Positions 558 through 22,512 of a DNA stretch of 64,000 nucleotides are shown in pieces. The first letter of the stretch is position 1; each line of letters opens with the position of its first letter. Source of the stretch: a bacterium (GTDB lineage: Bacteria; Moduliflexota; Moduliflexia; Moduliflexales; JAUQPW01); NCBI GenBank assembly GCA_030550175.1, contig JAUQPW010000005.1, positions 23,873 to 87,872 of the forward strand. Direction: 5' to 3'. Both the position numbers and the translations under genes were made by a program. The notes beneath the pieces were generated by a model. It saw only the letters and a program-made list of their open reading frames with translations, did no database searches and was not told the origin of the DNA.

Positions 558-607
558 TCTTCTTTATTCCATTTATCATAGTCCACGTATCAGGGGCTAG
601 AAAAACA

Positions 608-1543
608 ATGACCGGAGAGTTAAAACTCTTTACTGGTAACTCAAATCGTGCTTTAGCTGAAGAAATCAGTAAATATTTAGGAGTTCCTCTGGGAAAAGCA
701 ACCGTTACAAAATTTAGCGACGGGGAAACCTTTGTGCGTATTGAAGAGAATGTCCGAGGTTCAGAGGTTTTTGTCATCCAATCTATCTGTCATCCCAGTA
801 ATGATAACCTCATGGAGCTTCTCATCATGATGGATGCATTGTCCCGGGCATCTGCTCAGAGTATTACGGCAGTTCTTCCTTATTATGGCTATGGAAGGCA
901 GGATCGTAAGTCGATGCCGAGGGTCCCTATCTCCGCCAAATTGGTTGCCAACCTGATCACAACAGCCGGAGCAGATCGAGTTGTTACCATTGACTTGCAT
1001 GCCGGACAGATCCAGGGGTTTTTTGATATCCCGGTCGATAACCTCTTTGCAACGTCCGTCCTTTTAGACTATATTGTAAAAAAGAATTTGCCCGACCTGA
1101 TCATTGTCTCACCAGATGCTGGTGGAACTGAAAGAGCTCGGGTTTATGCCAAGAAGTTGAATTGTTCACTTGCCATCATTGATAAAAGAAGAAGTGAACC
1201 CAATGTTGCCCACGTTATGAACGTCATTGGAGATGTAAGAGGAAAAACTGCTATCATTGTCGATGACATGATCGACACTGCAGGAACTTTAGTAAAATCG
1301 GCGAAGGCCTTGCAAGAGCAGGGTGCCGTTAAAGTCTATGCAGCCTGTACACATCCGGTTTTGTCGGGTCCTGCCATAGAAAATATCGATAATTCCAACC
1401 TAGTGGAGGTGGTCGTTACTAATACCATTCCCTTGAACGGAAAATATAGCAGTAAAATCCGGGTGCTTTCCATTGCCGGATTATTAGCCGAGGCTATCGA
1501 CAGAATTTTTAAACGAACCTCGGTCAGTGAAATGTTTGAATAA
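608..1543 (+). CDS. prs: Ribose-phosphate pyrophosphokinase
   Basis: Motifs [46 protein letters not shown]. Start moved from 533 to ATG 608 ([13 protein letters not shown]), the typical N-terminus. Confidence 0.98.
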
Positions 1544-1642
1544 TCCTTTGTGTGTTGTTCTTCGTCGATTGCTTCGGGTAATGACCTTTAGAGAAACCGA
1601 CCCGCAAAAGGCAAGGGACGAAGAATACCCAACGAATATTTT

Positions 1643-2305
1643 ATGGAAACCGTTGAACTGATAACCGAAGTCAGAACTCCCGGGGGAAAGGGAGTCGCTC
1701 GAAAACTCAGGAGAGCCGGACGTATACCCGGCATTGTTTATGGAGGATCGGATGGATCTGTGCCGATCAGTATCAATCCCAGAAGTCTAGCCAAAACCTT
1801 AGAAAAGGAAAATGTTCTGATCGATTTAACCATTCAGCAGGGAAACACCACTACAAAAAAAACGGCCATTGTAAAAGAAGTTCAAAGGGATCCGGTTACA
1901 CGGGCAGTATTACATGCGGACTTTTTTGAGATTTCTATGGATAAACCCATTGAAGTAGAAGTTCCCATTGAACTGGTTGGAAAGGCGAAAGGAGTCACGG
2001 AAAGTGGCGGTGTACTGGAGATTGCCATGAGGGCACTTACCATTGAATGTCTCCCTTCGGCAATCCCACCGCATATTGAAGTGGATATCTCGGACTTAAA
2101 CATTGGGGATTTTATAGCCGTGCGGGATGTTAAAGTTCCTCAAACGATTAAAATCGTCAGTGATCCGGAAAAAACCATTGTAACCGTTGTACCTCCGATG
2201 GCAGAAGAGATTGCTGAAAAAGTTGAAGCGGCACCCGGTGAGCCGGAGGTTATCGGAAAAGGTAAGGCTCCTGCTGAGGAAGAAGGTGAAGAAGCCAAAG
2301 CTTAA
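1643..2305 (+). CDS. rplY: 50S ribosomal protein L25 / general stress protein Ctc
   Basis: GKGVARKLRRAGRIPGIVYG, KEVQRDPV, LHADF, acidic C-tail; conserved prs-rplY-pth order. Confidence 0.97.
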   Translation: METVELITEVRTPGGKGVARKLRRAGRIPGIVYGGSDGSVPISINPRSLAKTLEKENVLIDLTIQQGNTTTKKTAIVKEVQRDPVTRAVLHADFFEISMDKPIEVEVPIELVGKAKGVTESGGVLEIAMRALTIECLPSAIPPHIEVDISDLNIGDFIAVRDVKVPQTIKIVSDPEKTIVTVVPPMAEEIAEKVEAAPGEPEVIGKGKAPAEEEGEEAKA

Positions 2306-2373
2306 CTCAATCAGCCATGAACAACGAACAAACTCCGGATTGTTCCTTTTCATGGCTAATTACGAATGGTTAA

Positions 2374-2952
2374 TTGAAAGCAGTACTAGGCCTGGGGAAT
2401 CCCGGTAGAACTTATGAGGCTACCCGGCATAATGTAGGTTTTCAGGTTATTCGGCAACTTGCGCAAGAATTAGGTATTCCTTTAGCGAAAAAGGGGTTTA
2501 AATCCCGTTTTGGCCGGGGGACTTTTAACCATATACCTGTTCTGCTGGTAGAACCACTCACTTATATGAATCTCAGTGGACAGGCCGTTAAGGAGCTGGT
2601 TGCTACGTTTAATTTAACTCCCTCCGATTTGATTGTGGTCCATGATGATATAGATTTGGAACTCGGCAGAATTCGGATCAAAAGGAGAGGTGGGGATGGA
2701 GGCCACAAGGGAATCCGATCTATTCGAGAGCATTTAGGAACCGATGAATTCTTGCGGGTTAAAGTAGGAGTCGGTCGGCCTGGGTCTTCTACGGAAGTAG
2801 CAGATTATGTTCTAAGCCCCTTTGATCCGCAAGAACAGGAACAGCTCAAAGAAGCCCTATCTAAAGCGGTGGGAGCGGTTAAACTCCTGATACTAGGTGA
2901 AGTGGACAAAGCGATGAATATCTATAATAAGTCCAAGGATTCCTCGCAATGA
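2374..2952 (+). CDS. pth: Peptidyl-tRNA hydrolase
   Basis: GLGNPG..YE.TRHNVGF, PLTYMNLSG, VHDDIDL, GHKGIRSI; TTG start. Confidence 0.98.
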   Translation: MKAVLGLGNPGRTYEATRHNVGFQVIRQLAQELGIPLAKKGFKSRFGRGTFNHIPVLLVEPLTYMNLSGQAVKELVATFNLTPSDLIVVHDDIDLELGRIRIKRRGGDGGHKGIRSIREHLGTDEFLRVKVGVGRPGSSTEVADYVLSPFDPQEQEQLKEALSKAVGAVKLLILGEVDKAMNIYNKSKDSSQ

Positions 2953-3020
2953 AAACTTCACGTCTGACTGGAAGAGGTATTAGAGAATACTTTGGAATAT
3001 CCCTGTTAGGGGAACCAATC

Positions 3021-3059
3021 AAAAACCAAGGGCGATCTGGATGATCGCCCTTGGTTTTT
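3021..3059. terminator. Bidirectional intrinsic terminator
   Basis: Perfect 17-bp stem AAAAACCAAGGGCGATC / GATCGCCCTTGGTTTTT with a 5-nt loop and A/T tails on both sides, between convergent genes. Confidence 0.9.
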
Positions 3060-3066
3060 AGTTTTC

Positions 3067-4269
3067 TTATTTCTTTCCGCCTTTATCAAAATCGGCCGGA
3101 AGTTTTACAACGGTAACGGGATCTTGATTGGTATTGGGAGCCAGTGCAGAGAGTTCGGGAATAACCAGGAGGTAGCTTCCATCGGCCATTTTACGAACTG
3201 CAATATCCGCCGGTCCGGCTAGTGTTTTGTCCGGCTGATCATAGGTCAACATCATCGGTTTTCCATCCGGCAGGAGGGTTACAATAACCGAGTTGGTATT
3301 TACAATCTCTGTATCCAGCCGGGCATTACCGGCGAAATCCAAACCATCCAGGGCTCCTAAACCGGTAACGAAGGGTGCCGGAAGCTTACCACTCTTGAAA
3401 TCTTCCACGGAGAGTTTGTACATACCTCCCTGGGCGGGATCTTTCATACCGGCAGCCACACCAACGGTATTGGTATGAATGCTCCCATCCGGGGCTACTT
3501 CCACACCATCCGGTCCACCCTCGGGCATGGCAATAAAGCTAACGGAAGCTTCTTTTCCATCCGCCAGATCATCCAGGGCCCCATGGGGAATCATATAAAC
3601 CCCTCCATTGGTTTTCACAGGAGGATCAAAGCTGGCACCGCCAATCCCGGTGTCTGCAACATATAAGTTACCATCTTTATCAAAGCCGGCTGCATTGGGA
3701 AGGGTAGCCGGAGATCCTCCATTGACCTTGGCAAAAACAGAGTCCATGCCCATTTTAATTTCGCCCAGGACTTTCCCCTCGGTATCAAACGCAACCAGTT
3801 TAGGATCCATGCGTTTGGCATCTTTAATTTCGGTCCCGTTGGCTTCGGCTATGGGAGCAGCTCCAGCACACAAAAAGATGGTACCTTTGGGGAATTTCTT
3901 GGTGGCCACAGGAAGGACCGCCATTCCCAAGGGGGCCGTCAGACCCGTGATCAGTTTATCCTTTACCATCTTTAAGGTTCCATCGGGTTGAACTTCTAGC
4001 TTACTAATGTAACCGGCCTTTTCAGTCCAGTGAAATCCTTTTTCCTTCATCCCCAACTCAGCCGCGTTAGAGACAAATACAAACTTTCCATCGGCACTAA
4101 AAATAGCCCCTTCAGGATTGTCGAAGGCCTTTAATGTCTGGATAACCTGTCCTTTAACAGGGTAAGGTGGAGGAGGAGCCGGTTTTTCCTTTTCTTCGGC
4201 CAAAGAAACAGACGTAACTAAAAGACTAACTAAAACAAGGGAGAGAATCGATTTAACGCGTACATCCAT
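3067..4269 (-). CDS. Exported SMP-30/gluconolactonase/NHL-like beta-propeller protein
   Basis: Signal peptide (SILSLVLVSLLVTSVSLA), Pro-rich linker, blade motifs NPEG, PLGM, PNAAGFDKDGNLYVADTG, PDGVEV, GPADI. AGGAGG lies 7 nt before ATG 4269. Confidence 0.7.
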   Translation of the reverse strand: MDVRVKSILSLVLVSLLVTSVSLAEEKEKPAPPPPYPVKGQVIQTLKAFDNPEGAIFSADGKFVFVSNAAELGMKEKGFHWTEKAGYISKLEVQPDGTLKMVKDKLITGLTAPLGMAVLPVATKKFPKGTIFLCAGAAPIAEANGTEIKDAKRMDPKLVAFDTEGKVLGEIKMGMDSVFAKVNGGSPATLPNAAGFDKDGNLYVADTGIGGASFDPPVKTNGGVYMIPHGALDDLADGKEASVSFIAMPEGGPDGVEVAPDGSIHTNTVGVAAGMKDPAQGGMYKLSVEDFKSGKLPAPFVTGLGALDGLDFAGNARLDTEIVNTNSVIVTLLPDGKPMMLTYDQPDKTLAGPADIAVRKMADGSYLLVIPELSALAPNTNQDPVTVVKLPADFDKGGKK

Positions 4270-6576: not shown

Positions 6577-6678
6577 AGAGTATAAGAGGGTGGGGGTATG
6601 AAAGTAGGGGGCGTGGGAGTGTGGAAGTGAGGAGGTGTGGGGGTATGGGAGTGTGGAGGTATGGGAGTGGGGGAGTAT
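6576..6678 (+). repeat. Degenerate G-rich octamer tandem array (about 13 units, consensus GGRRGTRT)
   Basis: Units such as GGGGGTAT, GGGAGTGT and GGAGGTAT run from the upstream TAG to the tupB ATG. Confidence 0.85.
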
Positions 6679-7375
6679 GGATTTAATTTGGGAAGGAATT
6701 CGAAAAGCCTTTGAGCTTTTAATACACCGGGACCGGGAGGTATTGGAGATTACGCTGCTTTCCCTTCGGGTCTCCGGATTGGCAACGATAGGTAGTTTGT
6801 TTCTGGGGGTTTCTATAGGGACTTTTCTGGCTTTAAGTCGCTTCCCCGGTCGCCGCTTATGGATTACCCTGATTAATACCGGAATGGGTCTACCCCCTGT
6901 TGTGGTGGGGTTGTTTGTTACGATTTTACTTTGGCGAAACGGACCTTTAGGATTCTTTCACCTGCTCTATACTCCCACGGCGATGGTGATAGCCCAGACT
7001 ATCCTTGCAACGCCTATTATGGCCGGATTAACCATAGCAGCCATCCAACATCTTAACCCCAAACTCCGTTTACAAATCCTGGCCCTTGGGGCCTCCCGCT
7101 GCCAGATGGTCTGGCTTCTCTTAAAGGAAGCCAGGCTCCCCTTACTGGCAGCTATTATGGCCAGTTTTGGAGGGGTTATTTCAGAGGTCGGGGCTTCGAT
7201 GATGGTAGGAGGGAATATCAAGGGACAAACCCGGGTGCTGACAACGGCTACGGTGTTGGAAACCAGTCGAGGTGAATTCGGTATGGCTATTGCCTTAAGT
7301 ATTCTGCTTTTTCTTTTAACCTTTAGTGTAAACCTGACCCTGACACTCCTTCAACAGCGAGAGCGACCTAAATAA
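6677..7375 (+). CDS. tupB: Tungstate/molybdate ABC transporter permease (TupB-like)
   Basis: NTGMGLPPVVVGL, LLYTPTAMVIAQ, EVGASMMVGGNI.GQTRVLTTA. Start moved to ATG 6677 because the upstream GTG lies inside the repeat array. Confidence 0.88.
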   Translation: MDLIWEGIRKAFELLIHRDREVLEITLLSLRVSGLATIGSLFLGVSIGTFLALSRFPGRRLWITLINTGMGLPPVVVGLFVTILLWRNGPLGFFHLLYTPTAMVIAQTILATPIMAGLTIAAIQHLNPKLRLQILALGASRCQMVWLLLKEARLPLLAAIMASFGGVISEVGASMMVGGNIKGQTRVLTTATVLETSRGEFGMAIALSILLFLLTFSVNLTLTLLQQRERPK

Positions 7376-7388
7376 GCCCTTAAGCGTT

Positions 7389-7436
7389 AGAAGCCAGGAG
7401 TTCCCAGGACTCCAGGCTTCTGACTCCGGAACTCCT
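7389..7436. repeat. Inverted heptamer-repeat hairpin between tupB and tupC
   Basis: AGAAGCCAGGAGT pairs with ACTCCAGGCTTCT; further GACTCC/GAACTCC units extend up to the GTG start. Confidence 0.7.
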
Positions 7437-7438
7437 CC

Positions 7439-8590
7439 GTGAAAGAAGTTATTCTAGAAGTCAGAAATCTACAAGTTCTGGGTGATAAGCAAACGATTCT
7501 GGATGTTCCCAAACTCCAGGTAGAGATGGGAGAAACCCTGGCTTTTCTCGGGCCTAATGGAGCCGGGAAAACGACTCTGCTTCAGGTTCTGGCCTTCCTC
7601 CAATCTCCCCATGAAGGAACCGTCTTCTTTAAAGGTCTGCCGGTTGATTATAAAAAGAATCTTCTCCCATTACGACGATCTCTGGCAGTCGTTTTTCAAG
7701 AGCCACTTTTATTCGATACCACCGTCTTCGAAAATGTCGCTTCCGGCTTGAAACTAAGGAGAGCCTCCCGGCAGGAGATCTACGAAAAGGTTTTTATATG
7801 GCTGGAACGATTGGGAATCTCCCATTTAGCGAATCGCTCGGCTAGAACCCTGTCAGGCGGCGAAGCCCAACGAACCAGCCTGGCGCGCGCCTTTGTCCTA
7901 AATCCCCAAATCCTCTTCCTGGATGAACCCTTTGCAGCTTTAGATTCTCCTTCCCGTGAAGCTCTTATCGAAGATATCGAACACATCCTCCGCGAAACCC
8001 ATACCACCACGATCCTGGTAACCCATGATCGCTCCGAAGTCCTCAGACTGGCAGATCGGGTTGCAATCATGGACCGCGGGAAAATCCTCCAGATGGGTAG
8101 AACCGATGAGGTCTTCAATCATCCCATCAATGAAACCGTAGCTGCTTTCGTAGGTATCGAAACGGTTCTACCCGGCAAAGTCGTAGAGGGAAGAGAAGGA
8201 ACTTTTCTGGTGAAGATTTCAGAAGGCCACACCATTGAAACTATCGGCAACCTTCGGGTCGGGGGAGATGTTCTGGTCTGTTTGAGGCCTGAACAGGTTA
8301 CGCTGGAGACCCTGGAAAGAGACCCGGGAACCTGCAGATCCGAAGGTAGGGAGAAGAAAGATTCTATACTTCTTCGGCCAGAAAAAATCACTTCCAGCGC
8401 CAGAAACCGGATAAAAGGGCGTATCCTGAGGGTAGTACCCCAAGGCTTGTATTATAAAGTAATTTTGGATTGTGGATTTCCGTTAACCTCGTTTGTGACC
8501 AAACATTCCGTGGAAGCACTAAACTTGAAGGAAGGACGGTCTATCCTGGCTACTTTTAAAGCGACGGCAGTCCACATTATCCCGAAATAA
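7439..8590 (+). CDS. tupC: Tungstate/molybdate ABC ATPase with C-terminal TOBE domains (TupC-like)
   Basis: Walker A GPNGAGKT, signature LSGGEAQR, Walker B LFLDEPF, H-loop VTHD, TOBE region SSARN..F.ATAVH. Confidence 0.88.
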   Translation: MKEVILEVRNLQVLGDKQTILDVPKLQVEMGETLAFLGPNGAGKTTLLQVLAFLQSPHEGTVFFKGLPVDYKKNLLPLRRSLAVVFQEPLLFDTTVFENVASGLKLRRASRQEIYEKVFIWLERLGISHLANRSARTLSGGEAQRTSLARAFVLNPQILFLDEPFAALDSPSREALIEDIEHILRETHTTTILVTHDRSEVLRLADRVAIMDRGKILQMGRTDEVFNHPINETVAAFVGIETVLPGKVVEGREGTFLVKISEGHTIETIGNLRVGGDVLVCLRPEQVTLETLERDPGTCRSEGREKKDSILLRPEKITSSARNRIKGRILRVVPQGLYYKVILDCGFPLTSFVTKHSVEALNLKEGRSILATFKATAVHIIPK

Positions 8591-8968: not shown

Positions 8969-11900
8969 TTATCCATGACCTTCCCAGATTGCCAGGGTTT
9001 CTTCCTGCAGGGATCGAACCTTGTCCACCATGTCCCTCAGCCTCTGATTATCAGGTTCGTACTGAAGGGCATTCTGATAGATGTGCATCGCTTCTCGATC
9101 TATGCGTTGATGTTTCAGACAACTTCGACTTAAGATCTGATAAACAAGTTTATTACGATGGCCCAGACGATACAGGCGCTTACAGATGGTCACCATCGCC
9201 TGCTCTTTGCTTAGATGATTTTCCCATATCTTATATTCTGATTCATCGGCTTTTAAATAAGCCTCCAGCAAAATGCTGAGAAGTTCCACATTATCAGGTT
9301 GAAATTCCAATGCCCTTTCATAGGCCCAGATGGCTCGTGGACCAGTCATTCTTCTCTGAAGGTAATAGTTAGCCAGAAGTAAGGCAGGGCCTCGCAGTTC
9401 TGGATCCAGGGAAAGGGCTTTATGATGGACCCAGAAAGCCCTGGCGTGAAAACGACCTGTTTTAAGATAAAGGGCACTTAACCGGGGAAAAATCCACACT
9501 TTCTTGGGATTCTTGTTCAGGAGTCGCTCATAAACCCGGATGACCTTGTCCCAGGCTCCCAAAGAGGCATAGAAGCGAATTTTAAGGCTCGAAGGTCTTA
9601 AGGAAAGAAGTATTCGGGTTGTCCCTAAAGCATTCCAGCACTCCATCAGCTTATTTCGAGATCGCTCTTTCCATTCGGGAATTTTGCGAATCTTCCGGAA
9701 CTCCCGAATAGCTTTACGGATTTTTCCCTGTTCCATATATAACAATCCCAACTGATAATGTGCAGCCGGAGCCTGGCCATCTTCTGTTGTCAGAAAGCGA
9801 TAGACAACTTCCAGTTTATTGAGGATAGTATCCAAGGTATGGGAGGGTACATCCCCTTTCCCGGAAGTCGATGGGGAGTTTTTACTGAACTTATAAGCAA
9901 GGGTTAGATATTCCCTGGCAAGGAGGGGTTTTCCCTTTGCCCAGAACAGGTCTGCTAACTTCAAGTAAAGATCCGTAAAAGAAGGATCTATGGGGATAAT
10001 CTCATGGAGGAAATCAATCCCCATAGCCAAAGTATTTGTTTTCTCACAGGCCTTTAGAAAAAGAGACAAAAATCTGAAATGGTCGGGATTTTCCGGAAGA
10101 AGTACCCAGGCCTTAAGGAGGATGGCATTTAACAGGGTCCGATTATAAGGATCTATTTTCAGCGCGTTTTCAAAAACCCAGAGGGCCCGCTCGCTGATCT
10201 TAAAGTTTCTCAGGTAACGGTAAGAGACCGGAATTATGGCCTCCGGATGGGTAAAGCCTAGAGATAAGGCACGGTCATAAACCTTTGCGGCTTCCTCATC
10301 CTGTCTTCCCATTTTGATATAAAGATCTGCCAGTAGGGGATAAATCCAAAGCTTATCCATCTGTTGGGAGTCCGTGGAAAGATCCTTCTCCAGCATCCTT
10401 TGGTAAATCTCGGCAGCTTTAGCATATCGGCCCAGAGTTTTATAAAAAGCTGCCTCCAGAACTTTGCTCTGGGTAAGTGAATCGAAAGATTTCTTCCTTC
10501 TCAAGATGAGGACAAAGAGAAGGCTTACCAGGATTCCCAGGCCTATGGTGGCATACCGAATCAGATTTCTTCGATATATTTCTTCATCTTTGGCTCTGCG
10601 CATCTGGTGTTCCTGTTGAGCGCGCAGAAGTTGACGTTCTCGTTGCTGATCTTCTTCCCAATATTGAAGGCCGGTTACTACCTCCTGGAGCTTTTGCAAG
10701 GTCTCAGGGTCGGCAGGATCTATCTCCAGGGCTTTTAAGAAGTAAGTTTTCGCGGCATCCCAATCCCATTCTTTTAGCTTTTCTTCCCCTAGACGCAGCA
10801 AAGGCTGGATTTGTTCTTGTTTTTGCCGGGTTATGAAAGAAACGGTCTGGTTCAGCTTTCTACGGGCATCTGAATGATAAGGATCTGCTTCCAGGGCTTT
10901 CTCAAAGAGTTTCCCGGCTTCTGTCCAGTCTTGCCGATCCATGGCAAGAGAGCCCCGGGCATAATAGAGGTTTGCCTGGAGCCTCTGGATTTGAAGGGTA
11001 GAATCGGGAATCGGGAATCGGGAATTTTCCAACTCAGATAGAGCCTGGCTAAAGTAGATAATGGCCTGGTCCCAGTTTTGTTGTTGAAGCTGGGCCTGCC
11101 CCTCCTGATGATTTTGATTTATAATGGCCTGTTGAAGCCGGCGCCGTGCTTCTTCGGTATCCTTCTCCTGAAGGGCCAACACAAAACTTTCCCTAGCTCG
11201 TGCCCATTGTTCCCGGCTAACCTGCTCGAGTCCTGTCTGGTACCATTGGGTATATCGGACCTCTCTCAAGTGGGTACGGGCTTCTTCGGTATCCAAAAAG
11301 CCCAAAGCCAGGGTAAAGCTGGCTCCTGCCTGGGACCACAAGCCCCGATCTGCCTGACTAAGGCCAGCTTCGTACCACTTATGATAACTGGCTTCCTGAA
11401 GTCCTTTTCGAGACTCTTCGGTATCCAGGGTACTTAAGGCAAGATTAAAATTTTCTATGGCATCGTCCCATCGTTTTTGTTTCATCCGCTCCATACCCAA
11501 ATCATACCATCGGTGATGGATCGCTTCCTTAAGCTTTTCTTTGACTTCGTCAACCGGTTTCACTTCCAAAGCCCGCTTTAAATTCTCAATAGCACTCTCC
11601 CATTTCCTTTCGGCCATCCGCATAAGGCCAAGCTTATACCATTTTTGAAAAATACTTTCAGGGTCTACGTTGGTCTTCTCCACCTTATCGGACTTTGCTT
11701 TATCCATTTCCTCCACTTTAGAGGGGGATGGAGGGGAGATTATTTCATCTTTAGGGGGTGGGGTTGCTTGGTCTTTGTTTTTCTCCTCCGGTTCTGTTTT
11801 CGGATTCTGTAAGCCTGGGGTGAGTTCGGTTGAATCAGAGGATCGACCCCTGATCTCTACTTTTTTACCGGGAGAATGTTGGGTGGAAGTCAGAGGTTTT

Positions 11901-14059
11901 TGTTTTTTCGTCTCACCACGTTCGGCTTTCAGCTTACTGAAACCGGCCTCCAGCTCTTTGCTTTTTAGAGTTTCCGGCCAGTCTATTCCCCATATCAGGG
12001 CGGTTCCATCGAAACTCCCGGATATTAACAAAGAGCCATCTTGATTAAAACTCAGACAATTAACCCAACTGGTATGACCTTTTAAGGTTTTGAGGAGTCG
12101 GCCTTCGTTCACGGTCCAGAGGAAGATGATGGAATCTGAACCGGCGCCTGCTAACCGGGATCCGTCCGGACTGAAGGCCAAGCTCCAAATGGGACCCGTA
12201 GGCCCCCGGAGAGTCCTCACTTCCCGGTTATCGGAAACACTCCAGAGGGTTACGGAATTATCCAGATTCCCTATAGCCAAAAGCTCTCCATCTGGACTCA
12301 AGGCCAGAGAGCTCATCCAGTTGCCGGGTCTTGTCAGGGTATGAATAGGCTCTCCCTGTTCTATATCCCAAAATATAACGGTTCCATCAGAGCCTGCCGA
12401 TATTAAAACCTTTCTATCGGGACTAAAAACAAGGGCCAAAACATCCTGGCTTTGGTTCCATAAGGTTTTCACCTTCTCTCCGGCCTGAAGATCCCAAAGG
12501 AAGATCACCTGATCGTCTCCCCCGGATGCCAAAAAAGCGTCGTCCGGGCTGAAAGCAAGTCTTAGAACAGAACCCCGGTGTCCCTCCAATACCCGCTGTT
12601 TCGCGCCACTTTGGGCATCCCAGAGGATAATCTGTTTATCCTCCCCACCTGAAGCCAGCAGGGTACCTTCTCGGTTAAAGGCAACGGTTCTTACAGCACC
12701 CAGATGGCCCTGTAGGGAAGAACGGGAGAGTTCAGAGTTACGTGGGCCTTCATCTTTTTCTTCTAGTTTTTTATTCTTCTTCCCTATCTGGATGAGGGGG
12801 GCCAGGTTCCATAGCTCTAACGTCCCGTTATCGCCTGCCAGGGCCAGAGTATCCTGGCTTATAGCCGAGGACCAAAGGGGAGAGGTATGATCCCATACCA
12901 CCGTAGGGGTAGAGTGGGCCACATCTCCATTTTGGAGATCCCATCGGACGAGCATATTTTCAGAACTGCTTGCGAGCAGGAAATGACCATCTGGGTTGAA
13001 AGCTACCGACCAGATATGATGGGCCGGACTCTGGAGGGTTTTCGATGCAGCGGCAGGTTCACGACCCCATTGGGAAATACTCCAAAGTCGCACGGTTCCA
13101 TCAAAACTTCCAGAAGCTAAGAAAGTTCCGTCAGGATTAAAAGCAACCGATTTCACGGCATCTTGATGATCTCGGATCACCTGGATCTTTTCCCCTTTTT
13201 TAATATCCCATAAAATCACGCTGGCATCATCGCTTCCAGAGGCTAACAAAGATCCCTGCGGGTTAAAAGCCAGGGACTGAACGGCATCTTGATGGCCCGA
13301 CAGAATTTTGTAGGAAAGTTGCCGGTCATCGGCTACGGCAGGTCTCAAATCGGTCAAAGCTTTCAGATCCCATAAAATCACCTGATGATCTGAACCACCG
13401 GAAGCCAGCAAAGTATGGTCCGGGTTAAAAGCCACCGATAGTACATGACCTCGATGACCCCGGAGTGTTCTGAGGGGTGAGGCCTGTTTAACTCCCGCTT
13501 TTAAATTCCAGAGAATAACCGTCTCATCATAGCTTCCAGAAGCCAGTAAAGTTCCATCCTTACTAAAGGCAAGAGCCGTAACCCAATTCTGATGACCGTG
13601 AAGGGTTGCTAATCTCTCTCCGGTTGCGGTTTTCCAAAGAATAATGGCTTTATCATATCCTCCAGAAGCTAAAATGGATCCATCGGGGCTAAAAGCGAGG
13701 GATCCAATGGGTCCAGTATGCCCCTGTAGCGGCATGCCTAATCGCATCTTAACTTCTGACAAAGTAGCCGGATCCCTTAATTCTATTCCTATGGATGTCG
13801 CTACGGCAACAGACTTACCATCCGGTGCATATTGGATGGTACTGATCCATCCTTTACCTAACCGTTGTAATAACCCGTCATCTGCCCTCTGTGGATCGTT
13901 ATCTGTAGTTTGGCGTTTATAATCTGCAGGGACATTTCCCGCCAGAACCTGGGCGTTAAAATAGAAGGAGACCTTAAACCCTTCTCTACCTAGGATCCCC
14001 ATTAAAAGGAGAATCCAGACACCCATCAAGATCTTTATGAATTTGAAAGAAACCCGCAT
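8969..14059 (-). CDS. Giant exported WD40 (about 14 blades)-linker-TPR-TM-TPR protein
   Basis: Signal/anchor MRVSFKFIKILMGVWILLLMGILG; 14 GH..S(L/V)AF.PDG..LASG..D....LW repeats; K/E/P-rich linker; 44-aa TPR-like repeats; TM YATIGLGILVSLLFVLIL followed by RRKK; C-terminal TPRs. Start moved from 14116. Confidence 0.85.
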   Translation of the reverse strand: MRVSFKFIKILMGVWILLLMGILGREGFKVSFYFNAQVLAGNVPADYKRQTTDNDPQRADDGLLQRLGKGWISTIQYAPDGKSVAVATSIGIELRDPATLSEVKMRLGMPLQGHTGPIGSLAFSPDGSILASGGYDKAIILWKTATGERLATLHGHQNWVTALAFSKDGTLLASGSYDETVILWNLKAGVKQASPLRTLRGHRGHVLSVAFNPDHTLLASGGSDHQVILWDLKALTDLRPAVADDRQLSYKILSGHQDAVQSLAFNPQGSLLASGSDDASVILWDIKKGEKIQVIRDHQDAVKSVAFNPDGTFLASGSFDGTVRLWSISQWGREPAAASKTLQSPAHHIWSVAFNPDGHFLLASSSENMLVRWDLQNGDVAHSTPTVVWDHTSPLWSSAISQDTLALAGDNGTLELWNLAPLIQIGKKNKKLEEKDEGPRNSELSRSSLQGHLGAVRTVAFNREGTLLASGGEDKQIILWDAQSGAKQRVLEGHRGSVLRLAFSPDDAFLASGGDDQVIFLWDLQAGEKVKTLWNQSQDVLALVFSPDRKVLISAGSDGTVIFWDIEQGEPIHTLTRPGNWMSSLALSPDGELLAIGNLDNSVTLWSVSDNREVRTLRGPTGPIWSLAFSPDGSRLAGAGSDSIIFLWTVNEGRLLKTLKGHTSWVNCLSFNQDGSLLISGSFDGTALIWGIDWPETLKSKELEAGFSKLKAERGETKKQKPLTSTQHSPGKKVEIRGRSSDSTELTPGLQNPKTEPEEKNKDQATPPPKDEIISPPSPSKVEEMDKAKSDKVEKTNVDPESIFQKWYKLGLMRMAERKWESAIENLKRALEVKPVDEVKEKLKEAIHHRWYDLGMERMKQKRWDDAIENFNLALSTLDTEESRKGLQEASYHKWYEAGLSQADRGLWSQAGASFTLALGFLDTEEARTHLREVRYTQWYQTGLEQVSREQWARARESFVLALQEKDTEEARRRLQQAIINQNHQEGQAQLQQQNWDQAIIYFSQALSELENSRFPIPDSTLQIQRLQANLYYARGSLAMDRQDWTEAGKLFEKALEADPYHSDARRKLNQTVSFITRQKQEQIQPLLRLGEEKLKEWDWDAAKTYFLKALEIDPADPETLQKLQEVVTGLQYWEEDQQRERQLLRAQQEHQMRRAKDEEIYRRNLIRYATIGLGILVSLLFVLILRRKKSFDSLTQSKVLEAAFYKTLGRYAKAAEIYQRMLEKDLSTDSQQMDKLWIYPLLADLYIKMGRQDEEAAKVYDRALSLGFTHPEAIIPVSYRYLRNFKISERALWVFENALKIDPYNRTLLNAILLKAWVLLPENPDHFRFLSLFLKACEKTNTLAMGIDFLHEIIPIDPSFTDLYLKLADLFWAKGKPLLAREYLTLAYKFSKNSPSTSGKGDVPSHTLDTILNKLEVVYRFLTTEDGQAPAAHYQLGLLYMEQGKIRKAIREFRKIRKIPEWKERSRNKLMECWNALGTTRILLSLRPSSLKIRFYASLGAWDKVIRVYERLLNKNPKKVWIFPRLSALYLKTGRFHARAFWVHHKALSLDPELRGPALLLANYYLQRRMTGPRAIWAYERALEFQPDNVELLSILLEAYLKADESEYKIWENHLSKEQAMVTICKRLYRLGHRNKLVYQILSRSCLKHQRIDREAMHIYQNALQYEPDNQRLRDMVDKVRSLQEETLAIWEGHG
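11001..11026. repeat. Heptamer tandem (GAATCGG)x3 inside the WD40/TPR coding sequence
   Basis: GAATCGGGAATCGGGAATCGGGAATT, encoding SRFPIPDS on the minus strand. Confidence 0.85.
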
Positions 14060-14127
14060 CTGGTTTTTGTTCTCTGTTATCCTTGTCCTCTGTCCTTCCT
14101 GCAGGAGGTATAACAATGGACAATAGA

Positions 14128-14988
14128 TTAAAGAGAATATCGAGCTTCCCAGGCTCGAACTTCTGGGAATCCTATGAGTTCATCCAATTCCTTAAAGCTG
14201 ATCATTTCTTCAACCAGCCCTTTCGTGGTGCCTTTTTCTTTTAGAACGGTGAGAGCTCTTTTCATGGCTGTGAGGGAGGCTAAGAGGAGGGTAATAGGAT
14301 AGGCAACCAACTTGAATCCGAAGGATTGTAATTCCTGGTTGGAGATCAAAGGGGTTTTTCCTCCTTCAACCATATTGGCCATGGTGGGGACTTTAAAAGA
14401 TCCTCCGGCCCGTTTCAATTCCTCTAACGTGGTAGGGGATTCGACAAAAATAATATCGGCTCCCGCCTTCTCATAGAGTTGTCCCCGGTAAATAGCATCC
14501 TCAATCCCGGTTACGGTAACGGCATCTGTTCGGGCAATGATCAGAAAGTCGTCGCTTTGTCTTGAGTTTACAGCCGCTTCTACCTTTAAGGCCATTTCCT
14601 TTGCATCGATGAGGCGTTTGCCGGGGGTATGCCCGCATTTTTTAGGTATTTCTTGATCTTCGATTTGAATGGCCTGAGCCCCTGCCCATTCATATTCCTG
14701 AACCGTTCGGCGTACATTAATTACATTCCCAAACCCGGTATCTCCATCGGCCACCACGGGAATATTTACCGACCTGGCCAGATTGTGGACCCGTTCCACC
14801 ATTTCTGCAAAGGAGATCAATCCGGCATCAGGAAGGCCCAGGTGCGACGCCGTATGGCCATACCCCGAGAGGTAAACAGCTTCAAATCCCGCCTGTTCGA
14901 TGACCTTACCGGAAACCATATCAAAGGAAGCCGGAACCACTAAAATTTGTTCCCGGCGTAGAAGCTCTCTTAAAGTAGCTTTTCTCAT
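14128..14988 (-). CDS. Isocitrate lyase/PEP mutase family lyase (PrpB/2,3-dimethylmalate lyase-like)
   Basis: YLSG, DGDTGFG, QIEDQEIPKKCGH, IIARTDA, IFVE, ANMVEGGKTP. Likely start MRKATLREL at 14988. Confidence 0.9.
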   Translation of the reverse strand: MRKATLRELLRREQILVVPASFDMVSGKVIEQAGFEAVYLSGYGHTASHLGLPDAGLISFAEMVERVHNLARSVNIPVVADGDTGFGNVINVRRTVQEYEWAGAQAIQIEDQEIPKKCGHTPGKRLIDAKEMALKVEAAVNSRQSDDFLIIARTDAVTVTGIEDAIYRGQLYEKAGADIIFVESPTTLEELKRAGGSFKVPTMANMVEGGKTPLISNQELQSFGFKLVAYPITLLLASLTAMKRALTVLKEKGTTKGLVEEMISFKELDELIGFPEVRAWEARYSL

Positions 14989-15076
14989 AGCCTTTCCCCT
15001 TTTCTTTCTCCTAAAACCCAATAGGGACTCCCTCTATAAGAAGACTTTCTCAAGTCGAGAAGGATACTTTAAACAG

Positions 15077-15363: not shown

Positions 15364-16455
15364 ATGCTTATGGCACTAGATTTATCTACAGTCCTTGGTT
15401 TAGATATTGGTTCTCGTTATACCAAGCTGGTGGAACTCCGAAAATCCGGTAAGAAAATCGAGCTCGGTCGCAAACTCAAGGTTGAGACTCCCCAACAATT
15501 TGAAGAGATTCCGGCTTTTATTCAAGGGATCCTTCGGGATCACTTTACCGGGCTACCCCAACCCGAGAACCCTTTTTCGGCCTCTACCCTGGTATTAGGT
15601 ATGCCGAAAAGTCAAATTACCTTAAAGTATATTCAACTGGCTACCTCAGATCCCGAGCAAATTCACAAAGCTTTAGAATCTGAGGTGCGGAAGCTCCTTC
15701 CATTTCCTCCTAAAGACATTACCTTCTCTTACCATCTTCAAAAGAGGCTACTAAATAAAAAAGCACAAATACTTCTGGTTGCCTTAAGAAAGGATCTTTT
15801 GGATCAATATACCTCTATTTTAAAGGAAGGAGACTTTAATACCAGGATATTAGAAATCACTCCCATTGCCCAGATAAATTGTTACCTGTATAACTACAAT
15901 CCGAGTTCCAGAGAGAGCATCGCCCTTATGGATATAGGTGCGACGACCACCACCATAACCCTTTTAAAGGAAGAACTTCTTCGCTTTAGCCGGGATATCC
16001 CCATCGGGGGAGATACGGTCGTAACTGCCATTAAAGACAAGCTGAATCTCGACTGGGAAAGAGCCGCAGCCATGGAAATAAACCCAGGAATTGCTCTCAC
16101 TCCAAGGGAAGCTGATGAGACGGCCCGGGAGATCTATTACGCGTTAGAACCTATTTTAGATCAATTGATTATTGAAACCGAGCGATCTTTCAAGATTTCT
16201 TACTATGTAGATCATCCTAACCTGGTCACTCCTCAGGCTCTTGTGTTAATGGGAGGTGGGAGTCGGTTAAAGAATCTGGATAAGTACCTCGAAAGGCGCT
16301 TAAACGTACCTGTGATCAGAGCGAATCCATTTAACAAAATCGAAACCCCAGGAGAAGTAGAAGAAGATAACTCTATTTGGAGTATTGCAGTCGGATTAGG
16401 ATTGAGGGGATTGGTGGAGTTTCCGATCAGCTTTAATCTTTTCCCGGAGACTTGA
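15364..16455 (+). CDS. pilM: Type IV pilus assembly protein PilM (actin-like)
   Basis: LGLDIGS phosphate loop, ILLVA, ALMDIGATTT, IPIGG, LMGGGS.LKNL..YL, AVGLGLR. Confidence 0.9.
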   Translation: MLMALDLSTVLGLDIGSRYTKLVELRKSGKKIELGRKLKVETPQQFEEIPAFIQGILRDHFTGLPQPENPFSASTLVLGMPKSQITLKYIQLATSDPEQIHKALESEVRKLLPFPPKDITFSYHLQKRLLNKKAQILLVALRKDLLDQYTSILKEGDFNTRILEITPIAQINCYLYNYNPSSRESIALMDIGATTTTITLLKEELLRFSRDIPIGGDTVVTAIKDKLNLDWERAAAMEINPGIALTPREADETAREIYYALEPILDQLIIETERSFKISYYVDHPNLVTPQALVLMGGGSRLKNLDKYLERRLNVPVIRANPFNKIETPGEVEEDNSIWSIAVGLGLRGLVEFPISFNLFPET

Positions 16456-16593
16456 TCCTTTGCAAGGCAAGGACCAACGGGCAGGGACTCATCCCCTTTA
16501 CGTATACTATACTGTTCCGGCTCCACTGCCTGTGGCTTGCTGCTTTTTACCTATTACCTCCTGCTTCTGATACGCTACCCGGATCAACCTTGA
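16456..16593 (+). pseudogene. Possible decayed PilN-like remnant in frame after the pilM stop
   Basis: PilM ends ISFNLFPET, resembling the PilN INLLP motif. Reading through the TGA gives 45 aa with a hydrophobic stretch (GLLLFTYYLLLLI) before a second TGA. Confidence 0.3.
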
Positions 16594-16671
16594 AACTCCA
16601 GGCCATCTTCGAGGAGTTCTGCATCAGAGCCTGTTCTGAGATCTATCATATTCCTCTTTTTATCCATTCAT

Positions 16672-16715
16672 CCCTACACCCTTCTCCCGAAGCTTCAGGA
16701 GAGGGGTCGTGGGGG
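16672..16715. repeat. CCCTC-type hairpin (CCCGAAGCTTCAGG loop)
   Basis: CCCTTCTCC-CGAAGCTTCA-GGAGAGGGG; abuts MITE A copy 2. Confidence 0.75.
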
Positions 16716-16717
16716 CC

Positions 16718-16880
16718 TACGCGCCAGGATAAGAAGGTTAGCCCCGGCGGGGCAACCTGTTTCACAAGCCGCTGCTACGGAGCTTGAAGAAAATTCTGAA
16801 TGACTGAAACCCCCGACTTGCGTTGGGGGCTACCAACCGTTCACCCCTGACGGGGCTTTTTATCCTTATCCTGGCGTTTA
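16718..16880 (+). mobile_element. MITE family A, copy 2 (159 bp plus TA flanks)
   Basis: TA|CGCGCCAGGATAAG ... CTTATCCTGGCGTT|TA; colinear with copy 1 along its whole length. Confidence 0.85.
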
Positions 16881-16893
16881 TGCCCCCACCCCT

Positions 16894-16917
16894 TCCCTCC
16901 CCGTCCACGGGGAGGGA
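16894..16917. repeat. CCCTC-type hairpin
   Basis: TCCCTCCCCGT-CC-ACGGGGAGGGA, perfect 11-bp stem. Confidence 0.75.
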
Positions 16918-16947
16918 GAAGGAGGGAGGGGGTGAGGGAGCATAATT

Positions 16948-19659: not shown

Positions 19660-19836
19660 GATATTTCTCCTTTCGCTCCTTGGGGGATTTTTTAGACTAA
19701 GAATTAGACATAAACCCACCTGATTTACGGATATTGAACGTCGTTTTGTTAGATATTACAATTTGAGGAAAAGTCAAAGTGAAAATTAACAATTATAAAA
19801 ATTTTTTTAAAAAATCTGATCCTAATGAATTAAAGC

Positions 19837-19865
19837 TTGACAGGAAAGTGACTCCAGGCTATCCT
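19837..19865 (+). promoter_or_regulatory. Sigma70-type promoter for the YkgJ-carbamoyltransferase operon
   Basis: TTGACA-17 nt-TATCCT. Confidence 0.6.
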
Positions 19866-19931
19866 TTCCAGATATGGATAAAAGAAAATCTGGACCTCTT
19901 TAAAATGCAGGGAGTTTGAAAAAATGGAATT

Positions 19932-20147
19932 ATGATTCCGGGTGTACCTGATGAAGCCTGTATTCGATGTGGGGTCTGTTGTATTGCTTTGCGAGTTAAA
20001 TTACCGGATGGAACTTACAAACCGGAAGGGATGCCTTGTCCTTACCTGATTCCGAGAACCGAGGAAAAGCCCGCGAGCTGTAAAATCTACGATCAACGAC
20101 CCCAGGCTTGTGAGCTTTTCTTTTGCATGGATTTATTACCCCTTTGA
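19932..20147 (+). CDS. YkgJ family cysteine-cluster (CxxCxxCC) protein
   Basis: CIRCGVCC...CPYL...CKIYDQRPQAC. Confidence 0.8.
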   Translation: MIPGVPDEACIRCGVCCIALRVKLPDGTYKPEGMPCPYLIPRTEEKPASCKIYDQRPQACELFFCMDLLPL

Positions 20148-20180
20148 TTCCCATACGGGAAGGTAGGATGTGGAATAACT

Positions 20181-21998
20181 ATGTATATCCTTGGTATATC
20201 CTGTTTTTATCACGATAGTGCGGCCTGCTTAGCACAAGATGGAGAAATTATAGCTGCCGCTCAAGAAGAGCGATTTACCCGAAAGAAACACGATCATAGG
20301 TTTCCCCGGCATGCCATTCGTTATTGTCTGGAAGAGGCAGGAATTACAGTAAAAGATCTGGATTTTATCGGTTTCTACGATAAACCTCTCCTTAAGTTTG
20401 AGCGGATTTTGGAAACCTATCTAGCTTATGCGCCTTTTGGAATCCGGTCTTTTATGAAGGCCATTCCTCTCTGGATCAAACAAAAGCTTTGGATTCCCGA
20501 CCTTATCAAAAAAGAGCTGGGATATGAGGGAAAGATCATCTTCCCCGAGCATCATGAATCCCATGCTGCCAGTACCTTTTATCCTTCTCCCTTTAGAGAG
20601 GCAGCTATTTTGACCATGGATGGGGTCGGGGAATGGACCACAACCAGTTTCGGAGCCGGTTGTGGGAATGATTTTGAATTAGATTATGAAATTCGATTTC
20701 CCCACTCGTTAGGACTTTTATATTCGGCTTTTACGTATTACACAGGTTTTAAGGTCAACTCCGGCGAATACAAAGTAATGGGGCTGGCCCCTTATGGAGA
20801 GCCCAAATATGTAGATTTAATTTTAACCAAGCTGATGGACTTGAAAGAAGATGGATCTTTCAAGCTGAATATGGAGTATTTTGATTACTGTGCCGGATTG
20901 ACCATGACCAATGAGAAGTTCCATAAGCTTTTGGGAGGACCTCCGCGGGTACCGGAGACAAAGTTGACCCAAAAGGAAATGGATCTGGCCCGGTCCATCC
21001 AGGTGGTCACCGAAGAGACTATGCTCCGGATGGCCCGACATGTCCACAAAGTTACCGGGCAGAAAAACCTCTGTCTGGCCGGAGGAGTCGCCTTAAACTG
21101 TGTTGGCAATGGGCTTATCTTGAGGGAAGGCCCCTTTGAGAACATCTGGATACAGCCCGCCGCCGGAGATGCCGGAGGAGCTCTGGGTGCGGCCCTGTTT
21201 ATATGGTATAAATATCTGGGAAACGAGCGAAAACCCGATGGGAAGAAAGACTTCCAGAAAGGTTCTTATCTGGGACCTGCTTACTCCGACGAGGCCATTG
21301 AGAAGTTTCTGAGAAGTCGTCAGATACCTTACAAACGCCTGAGTCGAGAAGAACTGATCGATGTAGTTTCAGATCTTATCGCCAAAGAAAAGGTTGTGGG
21401 ATGGTTCCAGGGACGTATGGAATTCGGGCCTCGGGCTTTAGGCTCCCGAAGTATCCTGGGTGATCCCCGATCACCTAAAATGCAGGCGGAGATGAATATC
21501 AAGATTAAATTCCGGGAAGGGTTTAGACCCTTTGCCCCCAGTGTCCTGCTGGATAAGGTCTCTGATTATTTTGAGTTGGACCGGGAAAGCCCCTATATGC
21601 TGCTGGTGGCACCGGTCAAGGAAATCCATCGAAGGAAAATGACCGAAGAAGAACAAAAACTCTGGGGAATCGATAAGTTAAATGTGGTTCGTTCTTCGGT
21701 ACCGGCCATTACCCATGTAGATTACTCGGCAAGGATCCAAACGGTTAATCGAGAAGATCATCCCCTCTACTATGATTTAATCCATAAATTTTATGAAAAG
21801 ACCGGCTGTCCCGTTATCATCAACACCTCTTTCAATGTTCGAGGGGAACCCATTGTATGCCGACCAGAAGAGGCCTATATCTGCTTTATGCGAACTAATA
21901 TCGATTACCTTGCCATGGGTAGTTTCTTACTGGACAAACGCGAGCAAAAACCCCTGGAAAAAGACATTGATTGGAAAAAGGAGTTCGAACTAGATTGA
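20181..21998 (+). CDS. O-carbamoyltransferase (NodU/CmcH/TobZ/SxtI family)
   Basis: HHESHAAS, TMDGVGE, GEYKVMGLAPYG, GGVALNC, GDAGGALG, MEFGPRALG.RSIL, FRPFAP, NTSFN.RGEPIV. Confidence 0.95.
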   Translation: MYILGISCFYHDSAACLAQDGEIIAAAQEERFTRKKHDHRFPRHAIRYCLEEAGITVKDLDFIGFYDKPLLKFERILETYLAYAPFGIRSFMKAIPLWIKQKLWIPDLIKKELGYEGKIIFPEHHESHAASTFYPSPFREAAILTMDGVGEWTTTSFGAGCGNDFELDYEIRFPHSLGLLYSAFTYYTGFKVNSGEYKVMGLAPYGEPKYVDLILTKLMDLKEDGSFKLNMEYFDYCAGLTMTNEKFHKLLGGPPRVPETKLTQKEMDLARSIQVVTEETMLRMARHVHKVTGQKNLCLAGGVALNCVGNGLILREGPFENIWIQPAAGDAGGALGAALFIWYKYLGNERKPDGKKDFQKGSYLGPAYSDEAIEKFLRSRQIPYKRLSREELIDVVSDLIAKEKVVGWFQGRMEFGPRALGSRSILGDPRSPKMQAEMNIKIKFREGFRPFAPSVLLDKVSDYFELDRESPYMLLVAPVKEIHRRKMTEEEQKLWGIDKLNVVRSSVPAITHVDYSARIQTVNREDHPLYYDLIHKFYEKTGCPVIINTSFNVRGEPIVCRPEEAYICFMRTNIDYLAMGSFLLDKREQKPLEKDIDWKKEFELD

Positions 21999-22435
21999 AA
22001 GCCTTATTAGAAGAAATAAAAAAAATAAAACCAGATCGTAAAGATCTCCGTAAATTCGGAATAACCATTGCCATCGTACTGGGACTTCTGGGGAGTCTGG
22101 CCCTTTACAAGGGAAGCGGTAAATACCTGGGGTTCTGGGGAATAGGAGGCCTGTTTCTGGTTCTGGGTCTTCTCCTTCCAGAACTTCTTAAACCCATCCA
22201 CAAAGCCTGGATGGCCCTGGCTCTGATTTTGGGCTGGATTAACACCCATATCATCCTGGGTCTCATCTTTTTCCTGATCTTTACCCCTATTGGGCTGATT
22301 TTGAGATTGATGGGAAAAGACCTGCTCGATCAAAAATTTCCCCAACCCGGAACCGGATCGGGTTCTGATTTGACTTACTGGAAAAAAAGAGAAAAAAATT
22401 CGAAAGATAAAGTAAGATATGAACGGATGTTTTAA
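21995..22435 (+). CDS. SxtJ-family membrane protein
   Basis: LRKFG, P..L.PI.KAWM, LGWINT.IILGLIFFLIFTPIG, YW...YERMF. TTG start overlaps the upstream TGA (TTGA). Confidence 0.85.
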   Translation: MKALLEEIKKIKPDRKDLRKFGITIAIVLGLLGSLALYKGSGKYLGFWGIGGLFLVLGLLLPELLKPIHKAWMALALILGWINTHIILGLIFFLIFTPIGLILRLMGKDLLDQKFPQPGTGSGSDLTYWKKREKNSKDKVRYERMF

Positions 22436-22512
22436 TCCACTCTCTGCTGTCTGTTGCTCCCCACCTTATACGGGTAGTTTCCAACAGACAATGGATAAGG
22501 GATAATCCACAG

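Follow-up and report, generated by a model that had tools for sequence, protein, structure and literature searches.

We examined a 64,000-nt stretch of bacterial DNA from contig JAUQPW010000005.1 (hereafter the window), in which a single, very long gene on the minus strand encodes a protein of 1,696 amino acids (hereafter the giant). The giant consists of a signal-like N-terminus, 14 WD40 repeats, a disordered spacer, a rod of tetratricopeptide repeats (TPR), one internal transmembrane (TM) helix, and a second, basic TPR superhelix at the C-terminus. With moderate confidence, we consider the giant to be a bitopic inner-membrane scaffold of a diderm bacterium, built of protein-binding repeats only and serving as an adaptor or hub rather than as an enzyme-linked receptor. 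In the following, G000 is the genome to which the window belongs and G001 a sister genome, L001–L004 are other loci that hold giant orthologs, and P0004–P0008 are ortholog proteins. The gene and its parts, as delimited by Pfam, AlphaFold2 (AF2), and Foldseek, are listed below.

8969..14059, minus strand: giant gene, 1,696 codons plus stop; its ATG at 14059 is conserved in sister genome G001
13940..14059, minus strand: signal-like N-terminus, residues 1–40 (n-region MRVSFKFIK, h-region ILMGVWILLLMGILG)
11984..13870, minus strand: 14 WD40 repeats, tandem beta-propeller, residues 64–692 (Pfam, AF2, Foldseek)
11663..11983, minus strand: disordered Pro/Glu/Lys-rich spacer, residues 693–799 (AF2, per-residue confidence [pLDDT] below 50)
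10709..11662, minus strand: TPR rod, residues 800–1117 (Pfam, AF2)
10562..10708, minus strand: long polar juxtamembrane helix, residues 1118–1166 (AF2)
10502..10561, minus strand: the only internal TM helix, residues 1167–1186 (Kyte-Doolittle hydropathy 2.21 over 19 residues), followed by RRKK
8972..10501, minus strand: basic TPR superhelix, residues 1187–1696 (AF2, Foldseek, Pfam)

Gene and translation start

The longest open reading frame (ORF) at this locus (8969..14116, minus strand, 1715 codons) opens at a TTG at position 14116, and the ATG at 14059 gives the 1,696-residue product, with 8972..14059 as the coding part. At most 19 codons are open upstream of this ATG in the window. In L002 and L004, a GGAGG Shine-Dalgarno (SD) sequence precedes the start and an in-frame stop lies six codons upstream, and in L001 an in-frame stop is found 13 codons upstream. 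Since no more than 19 codons are open upstream in these four loci, no domain, including a cytoplasmic N-terminal domain, can lie ahead of the hydrophobic segment. A comparison with G001, intended to separate coding from non-coding sequence around the start, was uninformative, as identity is 88% with intergenic DNA included. RNA-seq support was not found, the sequence occurring only in DNA metagenomes, of which those with a near-complete copy are from hot springs.

Domain organization

The WD40 family (PF00400) matched residues ~70–700 in 12 stretches with a score of 400 bits against a cut-off of 27. Sequence and AF2 model together place the 14 repeats at residues 71–96, 116–142, 158–184, 204–230, 258–284, 300–326, 347–374, 393–418, 454–480, 496–522, 538–564, 580–606, 622–648, and 664–690. 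In the AF2 model of the N-terminal 1,200 residues, which drew on aligned sequences from four lineages and has a mean pLDDT of 72.7, residues 72–691 form 14 four-stranded blades with pLDDT of ~80–94, and a 27-residue insert lies within the blade loop after repeat 8. Just before the propellers is an invariant motif, L-x-R-L-G-K-G-W. The top PDB match of residues ~70–690 is 2ymu (E 5e-47, 33% identity), a 14-repeat prokaryotic WD40 structure, with eukaryotic tandem-propeller proteins ranking after it. The WD40 region has a net charge of −15 and a single, non-conserved Cys. Each of its repeats is kept between orthologs, yet the repeats are mutually diverged, and this combination points to specific binding surfaces. 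Two other identities were considered and rejected: the TolB equivalog model TIGR02800 scored 27.8 bits against a cut-off of 343, and PADLOC returned just a partial WD40-type match to the model 'HEAT-ARM_XIII', which we do not read as evidence for membership in a defense system.

The spacer that follows contains 12% Pro and ~40% charged residues, and its length differs among orthologs. The rod is formed by five exact 44-residue units and two looser ones, seven in all (TPR_2 84 bits, TPR_1 82 bits), with the unit pattern WYxxG...W..A...F..AL...DTEE.R..L.E. In the AF2 model, helices of 24 and 14 residues alternate (pLDDT ~80–94), and residues 790–1166 scanned alone are above the cut-offs of several TPR families. 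The fixed 44-residue period is that of an unusual TPR variant with a second helix 10 residues longer. The core of the juxtamembrane helix, EDQQRERQLLRAQQE, is nearly invariant, and in the AF2 model this helix continues without a break into the TM segment. Only two hydrophobic segments are present in the whole protein, at residues 5–23 and 1167–1185, with RRKK after the second.

The C-terminal 510 residues carry a net charge of +24 and an internal duplication, and hold four of the five Cys of the giant, two of which are invariant. The AF2 model of residues 1190–1696 is all-helical, with ~30 helices (pLDDT 78.8). Only TPR-type families were matched in Pfam, several of them over their cut-offs (TPR_14 69 bits, TPR_11 57 bits, TPR_19 55 bits), and Foldseek returned only TPR superhelices, including Ctr9, SPINDLY/OGT, LbcA, APC subunits, intraflagellar transport complex A (IFT-A), and the BBSome, with E values of 1e-9 to 1e-6. 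Neither the AF2 model with Foldseek against the PDB nor Pfam revealed a catalytic or enzyme fold in residues 1187–1696, and a known output domain in this region was ruled out by the same three methods. The nearest relative of the C-terminal TPR within the same genome is a 1,094-residue protein on contig C31 of G000 (~100–3440, plus strand), which is 32% identical by blastp, and 37% by tblastn, to giant residues ~1490–1690. It begins with a TPR array and continues with a P-loop ATPase (GMRKIGKTS) of the STAND type (signal transduction ATPases with numerous domains), for which AAA_16 and ATPase_2 scored just under their cut-offs.

An initial annotation, made from the letters of the window alone, had described a protein of this size with a signal-like N-terminus, 14 canonical WD40 blades, a disordered linker, a TPR stalk, one TM helix followed by RRKK, and ~500 residues of cytoplasmic TPR-like helices lacking an enzymatic output. 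Our analysis bears out this anatomy at the positions given above, with the cytoplasmic placement as a prediction; the signal-like pattern is shared by all orthologs with a recorded N-terminus (see below). The initial annotation had also allowed that the C-terminal region might fold as a known enzyme, and what is found there is a TPR superhelix instead. As for the other objection that it named, an N-terminus that is neither signal nor anchor, the conserved signal-like pattern speaks against it.

N-terminus and predicted topology

The n-region MRVSFKFIK, which is free of acidic residues, has a charge of +3 and leads into the 15-residue h-region ILMGVWILLLMGILG; candidate (−3,−1) cleavage sites follow G24 and A40. 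A positive n-region without acidic residues, followed by an uncharged core of 8–17 residues and then by candidate (−3,−1) sites, is present in the window protein and in P0004, P0006, P0007, and P0008; the record of P0005, whose gene call begins at a later Met, does not include this stretch. In most of these orthologs the core is of signal-peptide rather than TM length, and an N-A/V-Y-A↓E site is common to three of them. No residue of the N-terminal segment is invariant across orthologs, yet the segment is always positively charged and then hydrophobic.

The host genome encodes BamA (653 bits) and LpxC (354 bits), both above cut-offs, and the host is therefore a diderm with lipopolysaccharide and a periplasm. 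Residues 1–1186 contain only the one non-conserved Cys of the WD40 region. Under the proposed topology, the net charge would be −15 outside (propellers) and +24 inside (C-terminal part). In addition, the fusion of a C-terminal-type TPR array to a P-loop STAND-type ATPase in the C31 protein argues for a cytoplasmic setting of the C-terminus. Based on the conserved signal-like N-terminus, the diderm host, a WD40 lipoprotein paralog (described below), the Cys-poor ectodomain, the ATPase-fused TPR relative, and the charge distribution, we infer that the WD40 region probably lies outside the inner membrane and the C-terminus inside.

Exported WD40 arrays in this genome and elsewhere

Contig C53 of G000 encodes a second canonical WD40 protein of 1,076 residues (~19690–22926; L096 8690–11926, plus strand), with a PF00400 score of 310 bits and ~20 repeats. 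It begins MKSIKLPVLGMLLILIFVTS↓C, which includes a textbook lipobox (LILIFVTS↓C), and is thus predicted to be an exported multi-propeller lipoprotein. A pre-propeller motif is loosely common to both proteins (LFKLGRGAEF in the lipoprotein, LQRLGKGWIS in the giant). The presence of this paralog in the same genome indicates that WD40 arrays of this type are exported in this organism, and nothing informative was found in its neighborhood. Two further WD40 proteins of the genome are a TM-NACHT/NB-ARC-WD40 STAND protein on contig C116 (1,156-residue frame) and a Ser/Thr kinase-TPR-WD40 protein on contig C60 (1,307-residue frame). Both are clearly cytoplasmic, and their repeats are Cys-rich and near-identical.

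We surveyed the 114 best long matches to the WD40 region of the giant with a simple n-region/h-region test. Textbook signal peptides or lipoboxes are present in 27 of them, and these signal-bearing relatives have half the Cys content of the others. Companion domains of the exported arrays include Big_1, M56 peptidase, CarboxypepD_reg, and similar domains. None of the WD40 matches inspected combines a mid-chain TM helix with a ~500-residue cytoplasmic TPR array. In a systematic survey of WD40 proteins from prokaryotes (PMC5587647), the terms signal peptide and periplasm do not occur. Considering both this and the 27 signal-bearing proteins, our results suggest that exported WD40 arrays are a common but undescribed class. 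Therefore, the premise of the initial annotation that export is unusual for WD40 arrays does not hold, since about a quarter of the closest long proteins carry signal peptides and a lipoprotein of this kind is encoded in the same genome.

Family, conservation, and rate of evolution

The C-terminal region served as the query in a word-indexed search of 5.8 billion protein clusters and in a complete HMMER scan over 1.84 billion representatives. The first search retrieved six full-length members (1,622–1,696 residues), which are 100, 90, 84, 52, 55, and 54% identical over the C-terminal region and align end to end; beyond these six, it returned generic TPR matches only. The HMMER scan added one fragment and generic multi-stretch TPR matches. 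No giant was found in the GTDB species genomes beyond the sister species, and the gene is absent from seven genomes of the same order. The giant family is therefore tiny, and confined to a small group of related uncultured lineages, from hot-spring metagenomes where the source is known. The full architecture recurs in five further protein clusters, at 54–90% identity, and is therefore neither a chance arrangement nor a fusion artefact.

Across four lineages, 32–46% of the positions in the structured modules are invariant, compared with 0–1% in the N-terminal segment and the spacer (1% in the latter), a pattern as would be expected if constrained domains are bordered by a signal peptide and by a disordered tether. 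Between the window and L002, the giant is ~56% identical, whereas the flanking metabolic genes are 80–89% identical (PrpB-like 88%, MR_MLE 86–89%, solute-binding protein [SBP] 80%), which corresponds to a roughly threefold higher rate of evolution for the giant than for its neighbors. Intermediate identities were observed in this comparison for a PilM-like protein (69%) and a di-heme protein (70%).

The RpoB of the window's genome is closest (~60%) to those of Myxococcota, Syntrophales, and Acidobacteriota, and not to those of the Planctomycetes-Verrucomicrobia-Chlamydiae (PVC) group. P0004, the 90% identical ortholog, whose N-terminal sequence matches G001, comes from a metagenome-assembled genome labeled 'Candidatus Limnocylindrales' (Chloroflexota) at NCBI. 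This public label looks doubtful, as it fits poorly with RpoB, BamA, and LpxC.

Gene neighborhood

Two genes upstream of the giant are relevant here.

14128..15021, minus strand: PrpB-like gene of the PEP-mutase/isocitrate-lyase superfamily, under the equivalog cut-off; 68 bp upstream of the giant, on the same strand
15364..16455, plus strand: orphan PilM-like actin-fold gene, above the TIGR01175 cut-off; L002 copy at 6671–7735, minus strand

In the window, the order upstream of the giant is PrpB-like, the divergent PilM-like gene, and then a propeller/di-heme/CHRD gene. In L002/L003, the order is di-heme gene, PilM-like (divergent), giant, PrpB-like, solute-binding proteins, and two MR_MLE genes. 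Parts of the latter order are found in L004 and L001, and the gene upstream of the giant in L001 is not PilM. The PrpB-like gene lies just downstream of the giant in the orthologous loci, and is probably only a neighbor. In the own genome of the giant, a different contig (C39) carries the SBP and MR_MLE genes, and the metabolic neighbors thus reflect synteny by descent. A conserved operon as a clue to function was therefore ruled out, the NMT1/SBP and MR_MLE genes being unlinked to the giant in G000. No secretin, pilin, or other machine genes were found near the giant.

The PilM-like protein is 69% identical between lineages and 29% identical to the canonical PilM of its own genome, in which a complete canonical pilMNOPQ operon is located elsewhere. 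The PilM-like gene is present in both assembled giant-bearing genomes and in none of the seven same-order genomes without the giant. In the window, G001, and L002/L003, it is found close to the giant, directly adjacent in L002/L003. No PilN gene follows it; its own C-terminal tail, EFPISFNLFPE (EFPITFNLLSD in L002), mimics the N-terminus of canonical PilN (MVKINLLPKE), and the protein may be self-capped or polymerize head to tail. The PilM-like protein is the only candidate for a cytoplasmic partner of the giant, and we treat it as a lead rather than as evidence. In the window, this gene is followed by a gap of ~490 bp (16456–16947) with only a low-quality ORF of 111 codons (16452–16787). The same junction in L002 measures 52 bp, and the gap in the window may be what is left of a pilN gene, or some other decayed sequence.

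Proposed function and alternative explanations

Since the giant has no catalytic or known signaling output, it must act by binding. We hypothesize that the N-terminal segment directs Sec-dependent passage of the chain through the inner membrane, and is afterwards cleaved or kept as an anchor. In the periplasm, the tandem WD40 propeller would form the far end, connected by the Pro/Glu/Lys-rich tether of 50–100 residues to the rigid TPR rod, from which the conserved polar helix would run directly into the single TM helix. With a flexible tether and a rigid rod, the propellers could reach toward the outer membrane or the peptidoglycan. In the cytoplasm, the basic TPR superhelix of ~14 hairpins may serve as a docking platform. 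The propellers would then bind at least one partner in the periplasm or close to the outer membrane, the cytoplasmic TPR array would bind at least one in the cytoplasm, and both sides might be positioned or coupled across the membrane. The initial annotation had proposed a trans-envelope hub for signaling or assembly. Neither an output domain nor a conserved functional operon was found, and such a hub is therefore putative.

It is conceivable that the giant and the PilM-like protein together form an undescribed transmembrane module, in which binding by the propellers near the outer membrane is relayed via the juxtamembrane helix and governs how an actin-fold filament or complex assembles on the cytoplasmic TPR superhelix. 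We regard this as a speculative and improbable extension. If true, it would be a kinase-free coupling of envelope to cytoplasm, on a protocoatomer-like propeller-solenoid chassis outside PVC.

Several observations weigh against the adaptor reading. The ATG in the window is not preceded by a good SD sequence, and the gene caller placed the start of the window protein at Met12. The internal TM helix has about the same charge, +3 net, on either flank, and the orientation therefore rests entirely on the N-terminal segment. The fast evolution of the giant possibly reflects weak constraint. A PilN-like INLLP motif was looked for in the giant and is absent, and the PilM-like protein has a PilN-like tail of its own; therefore, canonical PilM-PilN-type binding is not indicated. 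Further, the link to the PilM-like gene may simply reflect the shared ancestry of closely related genomes, with L001 differing. The uncertain start in the window and the symmetric charge would also be compatible with a reversed or largely cytoplasmic arrangement, in which the N-terminal stretch is no export signal, the WD40 region and the rod are cytoplasmic, and the C-terminal TPRs are periplasmic; canonical bacterial WD40 arrays are indeed mostly cytoplasmic, in fusions with STAND, kinase, or caspase domains, many of which are among the database matches. However, we consider such an arrangement improbable. In all orthologs whose N-terminus is recorded, a positive n-region precedes a hydrophobic stretch despite 0% residue identity there, the starts in L002 and L004 are backed by SD sequences, and even a start at Met12 would open with the hydrophobic core. 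The WD40 lipoprotein paralog, the almost Cys-free N-terminal 1,186 residues as opposed to the Cys-containing C-terminus, and the ATPase fused to a C-terminal-type TPR in a paralog argue in the same direction.

Alternatively, with the same topology, the giant might have a structural role, as an inner-membrane-anchored periplasmic platform that builds or stabilizes an envelope machine, with the cytoplasmic TPR needed only for localization. In this case, the propellers and the rod would be like in kind to the BamB/BamD, TolB/CpoB, and PilF-type modules, and the machine could be pilus-like with a PilM-like ATPase. Propellers and TPR proteins of the periplasm typically act as assembly factors, as in the Bam, Tol-Pal, and type IV pilus systems, and the Pro/Glu/Lys-rich spacer of the giant resembles the spacers that span the periplasm in TonB and TolA; both points would suit such a role, as would the proximity and co-occurrence of the PilM-like gene. 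The giant also matches the NCBIfam TPR models of PilW, Tgl, GltE, BamD, and YbgF, but far under the cut-offs, which amounts to generic TPR signal. Moreover, the canonical pilMNOPQ is complete and located elsewhere, machine genes such as those for a secretin or pilin are missing nearby, and 510 well-conserved cytoplasmic residues exceed what an anchor would need. We therefore hold this role to be rather unlikely, for the assembly platform in general as for its pilus-like form. The order of propellers followed by solenoid is also that of protocoatomer, COPI, and IFT proteins, and COPI alpha/beta' (3mkq) and IFT-A chains are among the Foldseek matches over propellers plus solenoid, so that a membrane-anchored coat-like protein, shaping or tethering membranes in the periplasm, can be envisaged; a membrane-coat-like protein of the PVC group, gp4978, was localized between the two membranes (PMC2799638). 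Yet the TM-scores are low and the matches generic for WD40 and TPR, the solenoid of the giant is plain TPR, and WD40 with TPR is a common combination of repeats. Given also that the host is not a PVC bacterium by RpoB and shows no evidence of internal membranes, and that a TM anchor and a cytoplasmic domain are unlike coat proteins, this explanation seems to us very improbable.

Comparison with known systems

FimV of Pseudomonas and HubP of Vibrio are single-pass inner-membrane hubs with a periplasmic binding module and a cytoplasmic TPR part, which are linked to type IV pilus and polar functions (PMC12918733). The giant resembles them as a non-enzymatic scaffold in which a single TM helix separates a predicted periplasmic binding module from an extensive, predicted cytoplasmic TPR part that would recruit other proteins. 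However, it lacks a LysM-like peptidoglycan-binding domain, no LysM or FimV model being among its NCBIfam matches, and residues 41–63 ahead of the propellers are too few for such a domain. Its predicted periplasmic part instead comprises ~1,150 residues of WD40 and TPR, and its cytoplasmic part is basic (+24) rather than acidic and without the FimV C-terminal domain. The giant and FimV/HubP are not homologous, and the likeness is functional.

A receptor-like layout as in the giant is known from the hybrid two-component system (HTCS) sensors of Bacteroides (e.g., BT4663, PDB 4a2l/4a2m), which have a signal peptide, a periplasmic tandem propeller, one TM helix, and a large cytoplasmic part. In HTCS, the propellers are made of Reg_prop repeats, and the cytoplasmic part consists of a histidine kinase, a receiver, and an AraC output. 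By contrast, the giant has canonical WD40 repeats and a TPR-only cytoplasmic part, with no HisKA/HATPase, receiver, or DNA-binding output by Pfam or AF2. Since two-sided single-pass scaffolds are already known from FimV/HubP, and receptors with periplasmic double propellers from HTCS, the concept of such a hub is not as undescribed as the initial annotation had supposed.

The 'membrane-coat-like' architecture has been reported in bacteria only for PVC, with gp4978 of Gemmata found in the paryphoplasm (PMC2799638). The giant likewise has an N-terminal propeller followed by an alpha-solenoid, is predicted between the inner and outer membranes, and its Foldseek alignments to COPI alpha/beta' span propeller and solenoid, although with low TM-scores. 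On the other hand, the PVC proteins are soluble or peripheral, whereas the giant has two propellers, a TM helix, a second, cytoplasmic solenoid, and a non-PVC host.

Most prokaryotic WD40 proteins are cytoplasmic fusions with STAND NTPase, kinase, or caspase domains (PMC5587647). With 2ymu, a highly repetitive double propeller from a cyanobacterium, the giant has in common 14 canonical WD40 repeats, but its repeats are mutually diverged and individually conserved, and follow a signal-like segment, which sets it apart from 2ymu as well as from the cytoplasmic proteins. It differs from the STAND NTPases with WD40 or TPR in that no NACHT/NB-ARC/AAA P-loop family was matched; in this genome, the C116 and C31 proteins are encoded by separate genes. 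The exported metagenomic WD40 arrays and the C53 lipoprotein are like the giant in that a signal peptide or lipobox, or in the giant a signal-like segment, precedes a long canonical WD40 array with few Cys.

Taken together, the parts and the general design of the giant are ordinary, and the protein is a variant of the known repeat-only bitopic scaffold or receptor-like type. Its value is limited by its occurrence in a handful of related uncultured lineages with no known partners, and no long-standing question depends on it. If the predicted topology is true, it would be a clean natural example of a repeat-only adaptor, one that exposes canonical WD40 propellers to the periplasm and a TPR platform to the cytoplasm. 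The giant would then also add to the evidence that exported WD40 arrays form a sizeable and essentially unstudied class of bacterial proteins.

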